DNA of 13,028 nucleotides from a virus (Duplodnaviria; Heunggongvirae; Uroviricota; Caudoviricetes). The first letter of the stretch is position 1. Each line of letters starts with the position of its first letter. Made by a program: the position numbers. Below are positions 1 to 3,000 of this stretch, piece after piece. The DNA lies in IMG/VR virus record IMGVR_UViG_2693429621_000007. The stretch is one strand, 5' to 3'.

Positions 1-3000
1 TACACCGAAATCATCGATGTGAAACAGTGCTACCCGAACACGGCGCTGGTCGGCGTGCAGGTGGATTCAGAGCAGTTCGGTAACCAGCAGGTGAGTCGCA
101 ATTATCATCTTCGCGGGCGCATTCTGCAGGTGCCGTCGAACTATAATCCGCAGACGCGGCAATACAGCGGTATCTGGGACGGAACGCTTAAGCCAGCATA
201 CAGCAACAACATGGCCTGGTGTCTGTGGGACATGCTCACTCATCCGCGCTACGGCATGGGGAAACGTCTTGGTGCGGCAGATGTGGACAAATGGGCGCTG
301 TATGTCATCGGCCAGTACTGCGACCAGTCAGTGACGGACGGATTTGGCGGCACGGAGCCGCGCATCACCTGTAACTCTTACCTGACCACACAGCGTAAGG
401 CGTGGGATGTTCTCAGTGATTTCTGCTCGGCGATGCGCTGTATGCCGGTATGGAACGGACAGATGCTGACGTTCGTGCAGGACCGACCGTCGGATAAGGT
501 GTGGACCTATAACCGCAGTAATGTGGTGATGCCGGACGATGGCGCGCCGTTCCGCTACAGCTTCAGCGCCCTGAAGGACCGCCATAATGCCGTTGAGGTG
601 AACTGGATTGACCCAGATAACGGCTGGGAGACGGCGACAGAGCTTGTGGAGGATACGCAGGCCATTGTCCGTTACGGTCGTAACGTCACGAAGATGGATG
701 CCTTTGGCTGTACCAGCCGGGGGCAGGCACACCGAGCCGGGCTGTGGCTGATTAAAACGGAACTGCTGGAAACGCAGACCGTGGACTTCAGCGTGGGCGC
801 AGAAGGGCTTCGCCATGTACCGGGTGATGTCATTGAAATCTGCGATGATGATTATGCCGGTATCAGCACCGGTGGTCGCGTACTGGCGGTGAACAGCCAG
901 ACCCGGACGCTGACGCTCGACCGTGAAATCACGCTGCCGTCCTCCGGTACCACGCTGATAAGCCTGGTTGACGGAAGTGGCAATCCGGTCAGCGTGGAGG
1001 TCCAGTCCGTCACCGACGGCGTGAAGGTGAAAGTGAGCCGGGTTCCTGACGGCGTTGCAGAATACAGCGTGTGGGGGCTGAAGCTGCCGACGCTGCACCA
1101 GCGATTGTTCCGCTGCGTGAGTATCCGTGAGAACGACGACGGCACGTATGCCATCACCGCCGTGCAGCATGTGCCGGAAAAAGAGGCCATCGTGGATAAC
1201 GGGGCACACTTTGACGGTGACCGGCGCGGCACGGTGAATGGTGTCACGCCGCCAGCGGTGCAGCACCTGACTGCCGAAGTCACCGCAGACAGCGGGGAAT
1301 ATCAGGTGCTGGCGCGATGGGACACGCCGAAGGTGGTGAAGGGTGTGAGCTTCCTGCTTCGCCTGACCGTGGCAGCGGACGACGGCAGTGAGCGGCTGGT
1401 CAGCACAGCCAGGACGACGGAAACCACATACCGCTTCAGGCAGCTGGCGCTGGGGAATTACAGTCTGACAGTCCGGGCGGTAAATGCCCGGGGGCAGCAG
1501 GGCGATCCGGCGTCGGTATCGTTCCGGATTGCGGCACCGGCAGCGCCTGTCACTATTGAACTGATACCGGGGTATTTTCAGATAACGGCGGTCCCGAAAC
1601 TGGCTGTATATGACCCGACGGTGCAGTTTGAGTTCTGGTTTTCGGAAAAGCGGATTGCGGATATCAGGCAGGTTGAAACCAGCGCCCGCTATCTTGGCAC
1701 GGCGCTGTACTGGATAGCCGCCAGTATCAATATCAGGCCGGGCCATGATTATTATTTTTACGTTCGCAGTGTGAACACCGTTGGCAAATCGGCATTTGTG
1801 GAGGCCATCGGTCGGGCGAGCGATGATGCAGAAGGTTATCTGAATTTTTATAAAGGGTTGATCAATAAAACGCATCTCGGCAAGGAGTTGTGGACGCAGA
1901 TTGATAACGGTCAGCTTGCGCCGGACCTGACTGAAATCAGGACGTCCATTACGAATGTCAGCAATGAAATCACGCAAACCGTCAATAAAAAACTGGAAAA
2001 TCAGAGTGCTGCAATCCAGCAGATACAGAAAGTTCAGGTTGATACAAATAATAACCTGAACAGCATGTGGGCTGTGAAGCTGCAACAGATGAAGGACGGA
2101 CGCCTTTATATTGCGGGTATCGGTGCCGGTATTGAGAATACGCCAGCAGGAATGCAGAGTCAGGTGCTGCTGGCGGCAGACAGGATTGCGATGATTAATC
2201 CTGCGAATGGCAACACAAAGCCGATGTTTGTTGGTCAGGGCGATCAGATATTCATGAACGACGTGTTCCTGAAATGCCTGACGGCTCCGACCATTACCAG
2301 CGGCGGTAATCCTCCGGCATTTTCCCTGACACCTGGCGGACGGCTGACGGCGAAAAATGCCGATATCAGCGGTAACGTGAACGCGAACTCCGGGACGCTC
2401 AACAACGTCACGATTAATAAGAACTGTCGGGTTCTGGGAAAATTGTCCGCGAACCAGATTGAAGGCGATCTCGTTAAAACAGTGGGCAAACCTTTCCCAC
2501 GGGACTCCCGGGCACCGGAGAGGTGGCCATCAGGGACCATTACCGTCAGGGTTTATGACGATCAGCCGTTTGATCGGCAAATTGTTATTCCCGCGGTGGC
2601 GTTTCGCGGTGCTAAACATGAGCGGAAGAATAACAATATTTATTCGTCATGCCGCCTGATAGTGAAGAAAAACGGTGCTGAAATTTATAACCGAACGACC
2701 CTGGATAATACGCTGATATATACGGGTGTTATTGATATGCCTGCCGGTCACGGTCACATGACGCTGGAGTTTTCTGTATCGGCATGGCTGGTAAATGGCT
2801 GGTATCCCACAGCAAGTATCAGCGATTTGCTGGTTGTGGTGATGAAGAAAGCCACTGCAGGCATCACGATTAGCTGAATTTTATAACCCAGATACGGGCA
2901 CCAGAAATGGTGCCTTTTTTATTGCAGAAAAGCGAGAGGTAATTATGCGTAAAGTTTGTGCAGCCATTTTGTCCGCAGCCATTTGCCTGGCCGTATCCGG

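Follow-up and report, generated by a model that had tools for sequence, protein, structure and literature searches.

The window analysed here is, as an exact match of its proteins showed, the whole of contig CXDP01000133.1 (13,028 bp) of the draft short-read assembly GCA_001247735.1, and it contains two copies of the phage gene J, with all features described below lying on the plus strand. On translation, J copy 1 (1..2877; tail tip or central tail fibre) is open for 958 codons to its stop, its 5' end being cut by the end of the contig, and Pfam assigns the domains Phage-tail_3, Ig_J, Ig_J_second, Phage_Tail_Tip and Ig_GpJ_C to it. Within this gene, a conserved body (850..2427), made of FNIII domains, helical shaft and beta-prism, is followed by a receptor-binding domain (RBD) cassette of the VT1-Sakai / gpJ-1A2 type (2428..2877). 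A terminator-like hairpin (2896..2915) forms the 3' border of the variable block, at which near-identity to copy 2 resumes, and the intact lom gene behind it (2945..3544, 199 aa; Ail/Lom outer-membrane beta-barrel) belongs to the downstream homology arm. Of the side tail fibre gene stf, an N-terminal fragment (3608..3919; PF08400, phage_tail_N) persists at this place, interrupted by IS21. Its ORF as listed spans 3566-3934, from an ATG at 3566 to a stop inside the element; the start at 3608 is deduced from the peptide MAVKISG, which is common to both stf copies, and 3919 is the last base ahead of IS21.

IS21 itself occupies 3920..5882 (99.9% identity to IS21 over 3916-5882), beginning at 3920 with the intact left end TGTCAGCGCC and containing an intact istA (4021-5193). 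By comparison with complete IS21, istB breaks off about 70 codons short of its stop codon, and the element has lost its right end. The sequence then enters the 5'-truncated body of J copy 2 (5883..7460), which sets in at a point equivalent to position 850 of copy 1, about codon 284 of copy 1 as numbered in the window, and lacks the N-terminal ~470 residues. The istB remnant and J copy 2 are joined in frame as one chimeric ORF of 911 aa (5193-7928), which ends with an RBD cassette of the phage 434 type (7461..7928). A second terminator-like hairpin (7951..7968), whose stem changes are compensatory relative to copy 1, precedes lom copy 2 (7999..8481), in which the loss of 83 bp between CTGGCG repeats has shifted the frame and left 160 aa. 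The second tail module closes with an intact stf (8580..11663) and the tail fibre assembly gene tfa (11663..12244), and its J-lom-stf-tfa order is the same as that of E. coli STEC316. Both called J genes show the domain order Ig_J, Ig_J_second, Phage_Tail_Tip, Ig_GpJ_C, with the PF12421 domain at the extreme C-terminus, immediately behind the region of the tail-tip fibre (PF09327).

The two J copies are closely similar up to the cassettes. Self-blastn of the window aligns 850-2427 with 5883-7460 at 91.0% identity over 1,578 nt, finds no match between 2428-2838 and 7461-7889, and detects similarity again from 2839/7890 to 3421/8475 at 88.8%. In 60-nt segments, identity falls from 0.78-0.98 to 0.33-0.65 across 2410-2860 and does not climb back to 0.85-1.0 before about 2891-2920 / 7944-7974. 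When the alignment was scanned by maximum chi-square, the best single change point proved to be 2428/7461, with 9.4% differences to its left and 49.9% to its right; its chi2 of 392 is far beyond chance, as none of 200 permutations exceeded 17. Both substitution rates rise at this point, dS from 0.30 upstream to 2.4 (saturated) in the cassette and dN from 0.046 to 0.65, while the conserved J bodies remain 92% identical at the amino acid level. Some stretches of at least 120 nt are identical between the copies, through which the assembler could have mis-threaded parts of this body. Each cassette, however, matches natural phage alleles over its whole length. The breakpoint reported in the preliminary description is thus real, and both its coordinates (2418-2877 and 7447-7928) and the peptides quoted there are correct. 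Since the divergent block is also bounded on its 3' side, by the J terminator hairpin that precedes lom, it is a cassette rather than a single breakpoint.

A collapse of similarity indicates a domain boundary, which is not necessarily where a crossover took place. Lambda and 434 J lose their similarity at the same alignment column as do copy 1 and copy 2, and the sharp drop at 2428/7461, common to other allele pairs, is where the constrained prism gives way to the variable RBD. The switch had been read as the exchange point itself, but informative sites put the exchange further upstream: up to 7307, copy 2 agrees with the group of copy 1, VT1 and phage 21 at 29/29 sites, and from 7308 on it agrees with the lambda/434 group at 12/12. 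This places a crossover in the ancestry of copy 2 at about 7307/7308, which lies upstream of the sharp drop by 153 nt, and the last 51 codons of its conserved beta-prism (7308..7460) are already of lambda/434 ancestry. Sliding identities show that the same cassettes sit on different upstream backbones, the body of 434 being lambda-like and that of copy 2 phage-21/VT1-like.

Despite the loss of nucleotide similarity, the two tips do not diverge completely, as had been stated, nor is the domain of copy 2 unrelated to that of copy 1. The cassettes are 39% identical to each other as proteins (E 5e-31), and both align to lambda J residues 983/985-1131, copy 1 with 40% identity (59/146 aligned residues, lambda J residues ~984-1132) and copy 2 with 36%. 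Against the curated cut-off of 26.2 bits for PF12421 (Ig_GpJ_C), copy 1 scores 129.2 bits and copy 2 93.6 bits, the lambda control reaching 251 bits. Searched alone against the PDB with phmmer, the copy 1 cassette matches 9wca (E 7e-50) and 8xcj (E 1.5e-28), and so does the copy 2 cassette (E 7e-28 and 6e-20, respectively). AF2 models of both tips are all-beta, with a pLDDT of ~76 overall and 80-97 in the RBD, these being monomer models in which the prism part has low confidence. Their best four Foldseek matches are the same, 8xck, 8xcj, 9wca and 9wcb (E 1e-16 to 1e-22; TM 0.71-0.73 when normalised to the 174-residue 9wcb chain), and both tips are accordingly predicted to share the Ig-like beta-sandwich fold of the solved gpJ structures. 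The two tips are long-diverged alleles of one homologous domain, the J C-terminal RBD (PF12421), and the idea of an unrelated domain in copy 2 is rejected by its clear homology to the copy 1 tip. Nor is copy 1 lambda-type: its identity to lambda J is about that between copy 2 and lambda or between the two copies, and its C-terminus differs from the lambda ending, VIKKQALGISVV, and belongs to the VT1-Sakai type. Both tips thus belong to one J receptor-binding family and are about equally similar to lambda J, the outcome that the preliminary description itself had named as its refutation.

In the structure of the lambda J RBD with LamB (PDB 8XCJ/8XCK; Ge and Wang 2024, PMC11101478), the domain is an Ig-like beta-sandwich; as a trimer it caps the central fibre, and four bottom loops enter the trimeric porin. 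Both copies share with it the Pfam family, the position at the end of the beta-prism, the predicted fold and the core motifs GT.TV, DD..FDRQ, NG, DMP.G.G and KK..GI, but differ from it by indels in the variable segments. Given the alternation of strands in the monomer model, the variable and indel segments may well be the receptor-contacting loops. Likewise, the 93-95% identity to tested alleles suggests that both tips would form trimers and bind a trimeric outer-membrane porin.

The copy 1 tip matches J of VT1-Sakai (Sp15), a gene annotated as split by mutation, at 138/149 residues (93%) without gaps, and its cassette is 90-91.5% identical at the nucleotide level to 57 phage records. Six of the eleven substitutions fall in one segment (SGAKHEKEHTD in VT1-Sakai), predicted to lie in or beside a bottom loop, so that the specificity of copy 1 could differ from that of VT1-Sakai. 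The same tip type is found in the engineered lambda chimera gpJ 1A2 (Brodel et al. 2024, PMC11338833), for whose C-terminus exact peptide words of at least 5 residues account for 136 of the 149 residues in the VT1-Sakai tip, for 121 of the 149 in copy 1 and for 15 of the 155 in copy 2; the 1A2 sequence being machine-read PDF text with indels, its identity to copy 1 is approximate. The copy 2 tip, in turn, matches the J C-terminal domain of phage 434 (OL657226 CPT_434_21) at 148/155 residues (95%) without gaps and at 95.3% of nucleotides, and its cassette is found in 74 phage records at 90-97% nucleotide identity. Copy 2 resembles 434 in tip length, loop insertions and J-terminator-lom context, and departs from it by seven tip substitutions, by a body that is of the phage-21/VT1-Sakai kind upstream of ~7308 where that of 434 is lambda-like, and by its truncation and fusion to IS21 istB. 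Both alleles are common in E. coli prophages, and J of STEC316 carries the 434-type tip.

A further relative is A8 gpJ713 bound to EDL933 OmpC (PDB 9WCA/9WCB, with 9wcb holding this complex), which is the best or near-best match to both copies in sequence and structure and shows directly that a domain of the PF12421 family can dock on OmpC. Its tip is that of prophage YYZ-2008, identical over the aligned residues. Since it has ~60% identity to copy 1 (tblastn against YYZ-2008) and copy 2 is more distant by phmmer E, the A8 tip is a third allele, neither of those in the window. We found no paper for PDB 9wca/9wcb.

With this in mind, we considered which receptors the two tips might use. The 434 J confers OmpC use (PMC11101478, Introduction), and 1A2 and A8 both deliver DNA via OmpC in a lamB deletion background, 1A2 working on OmpC of the O157 strain EDL933 but neither on MG1655 OmpC nor on LamB (PMC11338833); the chimeric tips in the supplements of that study are recoded relative to natural DNA. 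As the nearest tested alleles of both copies, 1A2 and 434, use OmpC, the 93-95% identity to tested alleles suggests that both tips recognise this same protein, and they probably differ in the OmpC variants they accept. Very different J tips can all target OmpC, and low identity between tips does not imply a different receptor protein. As regards the copy 1-type receptor, a 2026 receptor-prediction preprint covers Drexlerviridae GpJ and not lambdoid J, and a paper using PhiR phages gives no tip receptor. In an evolution study of Phi21, J of the stock is 94% identical to that of lambda at the nucleotide level and binds LamB (PMC11336670); this J being lambda-like, that paper says nothing on the tip of the sequenced phage 21.

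That the two copies specify different outer-membrane receptors, copy 1 through a lambda-type LamB-binding domain and copy 2 through an unrelated one, as first proposed, therefore seems very unlikely to us. It is true that the tips are strongly diverged, with no match at the nucleotide level, and that lambda's own tip binds LamB (PMC11101478). Yet copy 1 is hardly closer to the lambda tip than copy 2, both have the same Pfam domain and the same best structural matches, and the tested alleles nearest to each use OmpC. Even less credible is that the tips diverged in place, by fast positive selection after duplication of J and without import of a foreign allele. Selection is known to act on RBDs, a few J mutations change the receptor use of lambda and of the laboratory Phi21 stock (PMC11336670), and the high dN in the cassette would suit such a scenario; the saturation of synonymous sites, with dS at 2.4 against 0.30 upstream, does not, and is the reason why accelerated evolution in place is rejected. 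Moreover, each cassette occurs at 90-97% nucleotide identity in dozens of other phages, and the ancestry of copy 2 switches cleanly 153 nt ahead of the variable part.

We thus consider it highly probable that the window holds the PF12421 RBD as two alleles (VT1-Sakai/1A2 and 434), both tied experimentally to OmpC and swapped by recombination. Tip alleles would move between phage backbones by homologous recombination in conserved flanks, the upstream flank for the exchange being the beta-prism or conserved J body and the downstream flank the J terminator with lom. In this respect the preliminary description was right in regarding the J C-terminus as a module exchanged among lambdoid phages, of which the two copies carry different alleles. 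Exchange of this C-terminus as a host-range module is long established, and PMC11101478 cites the classical lambda-434 J replacement; there are solved structures of the tip with LamB and with OmpC, and it has already been exploited to retarget lambda particles (PMC11338833). The case is therefore one of ordinary, already known phage mosaicism and involves no new domain.

As to the fate of copy 2, it has no complete frame with N-terminal hub domains. With its N-terminal ~470 residues missing and its fusion to truncated istB, J copy 2 cannot make a tail tip; it is a remnant or pseudogene joined to a truncated IS21, which leaves copy 1 as the only J of the contig that could be functional. In annotation, the second J copy should hence not count as a second host-range determinant.

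Whether the two-copy layout is itself genuine deserves separate consideration, as the tail modules of separate prophages could have been brought together by a false IS21-to-J join of contigs. In favour of this, the window is an entire draft-assembly contig, E. coli carries J, lom and IS21 as multi-copy repeats, and the junction is absent from complete RefSeq E. coli genomes and GTDB species representatives: the whole window as query returned no complete E. coli genome with the same layout, the stf-IS21-J stretch matched only IS21 copies among complete RefSeq E. coli genomes, and the exact junction pattern did not occur in the GTDB species representatives. On the other hand, at most 2-4 nt are shared at the join, whereas a misjoin in a k-mer graph needs a long shared word, and the contig is listed under 2 samples. 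We regard an assembly artefact as unlikely, and the tip alleles and their comparison stand even if the join is false.

Alternatively, the truncated copy 2 might be a stored, silent tip cassette, able to take the place of the expressed tip by homologous recombination. One such exchange within the 1.6-kb direct repeats (850-2427 and 5883-7460) would convert the prophage from the 1A2-type to the 434-type tip in one step and, at the same time, would excise IS21 with the broken stf, so that a complete J-lom-stf-tfa module is regained; a single prophage region would then contain a host-range switch of the cassette kind. The direct orientation of the copies and their 91% identity over the 1,578 nt ahead of the cassette are consistent with such a switch, and the recombined product would match the gene order of STEC316, whose J has the 434-type tip. 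Nothing suggests a dedicated mechanism, however, copy 2 is joined to a broken IS21 and followed by a frameshifted lom, and no contig but this one showed the layout, complete E. coli genomes being among the data searched. A stored cassette is thus highly improbable, and the layout looks like the debris of a rearrangement between two prophages.

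The 3' ends of the two copies of the lambda-like tail-tip gene J diverge abruptly. In a self-comparison of the window, 850-2427 and 5883-7460 are 91.0% identical, similarity is undetectable between 2428-2838 and 7461-7889, and it becomes detectable again from 2839/7890. In 60-nt windows, identity falls from about 0.8-1.0 to 0.33-0.65 within this block and regains 0.85-1.0 only from about 2891-2920 / 7944-7974, at the hairpins after each J. A maximum chi-square scan places the best single change point at 2428/7461 (chi2 392 vs ≤17 in 200 permutations). Codon-wise, the upstream J body shows 92% amino acid identity (dS 0.30, dN 0.046) and the C-terminal receptor-binding domain, or tip (2428-2877 in copy 1, 7461-7928 in copy 2), 39% (dS ~2.4, saturated; dN 0.65). 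The loss of similarity reported in the preliminary description is thus real and was correctly located; the sharp divergence stands, but not the single breakpoint, since the block has two borders. The 3' border is a terminator-like hairpin after J, at 2896-2915 in copy 1 (stem GGCACC...GGTGCC) and 7951-7968 in copy 2 (GGCGTC...GACGCC). The stem reads GGCGCC...GGCGCC in phage 21, VT1-Sakai and prophage YYZ-2008, whereas 434 carries the form of copy 1 and the hairpin of lambda differs. The stem is kept through changes on both sides, a pattern consistent with a functional element under conservation. Within the J body, short patches at 68-78% identity (1540-1630 and 1810-1900; 6573-6662 and 6843-6932 in copy 2) in the fibronectin-like and shaft region suggest further small mosaic segments.

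The tip of copy 2 is not the unrelated domain it had been taken for. The two tips are 39% identical over their full length (BLASTP, E 5e-31), match identical PHROG tail-fibre families, and both score far above the 26.2-bit cut-off of PF12421 (Tip attachment protein J, C-terminal receptor binding domain), with 129 bits for copy 1 and 94 bits for copy 2. Searched alone, they match the structure of A8, an engineered lambda gpJ chimera (9wca; E 7e-50 and 7e-28, respectively), and that of lambda J (8xcj; E 1.5e-28 and 6e-20). AlphaFold2 models, built from an alignment of 32 J C-termini, are all-beta (mean pLDDT ~76, 80-97 within the domain) and have the same four top Foldseek PDB matches, namely 8xck and 8xcj (lambda gpJ713, closed and LamB-bound) and 9wca and 9wcb (A8 gpJ713, closed and OmpC-bound). 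Both tips thus belong to one family, at comparable identity to lambda J (40% for copy 1, 36% for copy 2), contrary to the two-domain reading. In an eight-sequence alignment, invariant core motifs (GT.TV, DD..FDRQ, NG, DMP.G.G, KK..GI) are separated by variable, indel-bearing segments, and along the model strands conserved turns alternate with variable segments. The lambda tip has four receptor-contacting bottom loops (PMC11101478). Judging from the models, conserved turns and variable segments would lie at opposite ends of the sandwich, the four variable segments being the putative counterparts of these loops.

With pairwise identities of 40%, 36% and 39%, lambda, copy 1 and copy 2 represent three about equidistant alleles. 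Copy 1 is hence not lambda-type, as first proposed: lambda J ends ...VIKKQALGISVV, and the ending formerly credited to it is of the VT1-Sakai type in the eight-sequence alignment. Copy 1 carries the VT1-Sakai (Sp15) allele (138/149 residues), for which 57 phage records cover at least 80%, the best of them being 90-91.5% identical in nucleotides. Copy 2 carries the allele of phage 434 (148/155 residues without gaps, 95.3% of nucleotides), present in 74 phage records at 90-97% nucleotide identity, Stx and mEp phages among them. A tblastn search with the copy 1 tip revealed discrete classes of phage J tips, at 89-95% identity for its own class, 63% for phage 21, ~60% for YYZ-2008 and ~40% for lambda and 434. 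At least eight tip classes below 80% mutual identity occur in a sample from a large protein collection, where both classes found here form clusters of hundreds to thousands of members; neither allele is new. In the VT1-Sakai record (L005, 1-3450), the annotation of J consists of two overlapping frames labelled 'truncated by a mutation', so that the reference copy of the copy 1 tip type sits in a damaged gene.

Both copies were compared with lambda, 434, phage 21, VT1-Sakai and YYZ-2008 in an alignment of the terminal ~870 nt of J and the adjoining flank. Up to about 7280, copy 2 resembles phage 21 and copy 1 (92-97% identity); past that point it resembles lambda and 434 instead (93-97%). At informative sites, where copy 1, VT1-Sakai and phage 21 agree and lambda and 434 differ from them, copy 2 follows the former group at 29/29 sites up to 7307 and the latter at 12/12 from 7308. 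This clean switch implies a crossover in the ancestry of copy 2 at about 7307/7308 (2274/2275 in copy 1). The sharp drop, which had been regarded as the exchange point, lies 153 nt further downstream. Between lambda and 434, identity is 88-100% as far as alignment column ~280 and collapses where it does between the two copies; the drop therefore marks the boundary between a constrained beta-prism and the variable domain. This boundary is common to these alleles, and the crossovers themselves lie in the conserved flanks. Copy 1 and phage 21 are similar until about 2470 and again from about 2800, which indicates that the first and last strands are common to the tips of copy 1, phage 21 and YYZ-2008; the inner borders vary with the allele pair.

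Exchanging lambda J for 434 J makes the particles bind OmpC, which 434 itself uses as receptor (PMC11101478). Brodel et al. grafted C-termini of natural J proteins onto lambda J at residue 964 and screened the fusions on a strain deleted for lamB. Two chimeras, A8 and 1A2, delivered DNA via OmpC; the EDL933 variant was accepted by both and the MG1655 variant by A8 alone, and 21 of 23 OmpC variants were served by one or both (PMC11338833). The A8 tip, solved in complex with EDL933 OmpC (9wcb), is identical to the YYZ-2008 tip over aligned residues. For 1A2, whose sequence in the supplement of PMC11338833 is machine-read and contains indels, matches to exact peptide words of at least five residues account for 136/149 residues in the VT1-Sakai tip, 121/149 in copy 1 and only 15/155 in copy 2, which assigns 1A2 to the type of copy 1. 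As 434 and 1A2 use OmpC, both alleles are of OmpC-using types. The receptor protein is thus probably the same, not different as had been suggested; from the 93-95% identity to these relatives, the tips likely differ in the range of OmpC variants. Six substitutions between copy 1 and VT1-Sakai cluster in a segment reading SGAKHEKEHTD in VT1-Sakai, in or adjoining a predicted contact loop, and could shift specificity.

The window corresponds to the whole of contig CXDP01000133.1 (13,028 bp) in the draft assembly GCA_001247735.1 and carries two lambdoid tail-end modules that point the same way. The contig starts inside J copy 1 (1-2877), whose 5' end is thereby lost, followed by lom (2945-3544) and ~100 codons from the start of the side tail fibre gene stf, broken at 3920 by an element 99.9% identical to IS21 over 3916-5882. 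Its boundaries lie at 3919/3920 and about 5879-5884; it retains an intact left end and an intact istA but lacks the right terminus, and its istB is truncated. The istB remnant continues in frame into J copy 2, whose sequence sets in mid-gene, at the counterpart of copy 1 position 850, and ends at 7928; together they form a 911-aa IstB-J chimeric ORF (5193-7928). We found this junction in none of the complete RefSeq E. coli genomes or GTDB species representatives. An illegitimate join of two prophage tail regions most likely explains the layout. A false contig join, conceivable in a draft assembly, is not favoured because the junction, with a few bases in common at most, lacks a long shared word.

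Without the hub domains, and with the IstB-J chimera as its only conceivable product, copy 2 is unable to form a tail tip. Copy 1 is possibly intact but lies next to the stf disrupted by IS21. The second lom (7999-8481) carries an 83-bp deletion between 6-bp CTGGCG repeats near 8470 (equivalent to 3422-3504), and the resulting frameshift gives a protein of 160 instead of 199 residues. E. coli STEC316 has a simple J (434-type tip)-lom-stf-tfa order at about 95% identity, an arrangement that direct-repeat recombination in the window would regenerate. The initial sequence observation was right, and its biology is amended as to lambda type, relatedness, receptor and crossover position; the case is then one of textbook modular exchange affecting the host-range domain of J, with two common alleles that have already been characterised.

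In module 2, stf (8580-11663) and tfa (11663-12244) are intact. This stf contains a long Ala/Ser/Thr-rich low-complexity stretch (8900-10000; strong AT skew of 0.3-0.4, 60-62% GC), beyond it two direct repeats of ~88 nt (9974-10061 and 10107-10193, 77% identical), and a His-rich HxH repeat region close to the C-terminus. The DNA after tfa (12245-13028) is AT-rich (32-40% GC), with a longest reading frame of at most 52 aa, and may represent the prophage end or flanking DNA.
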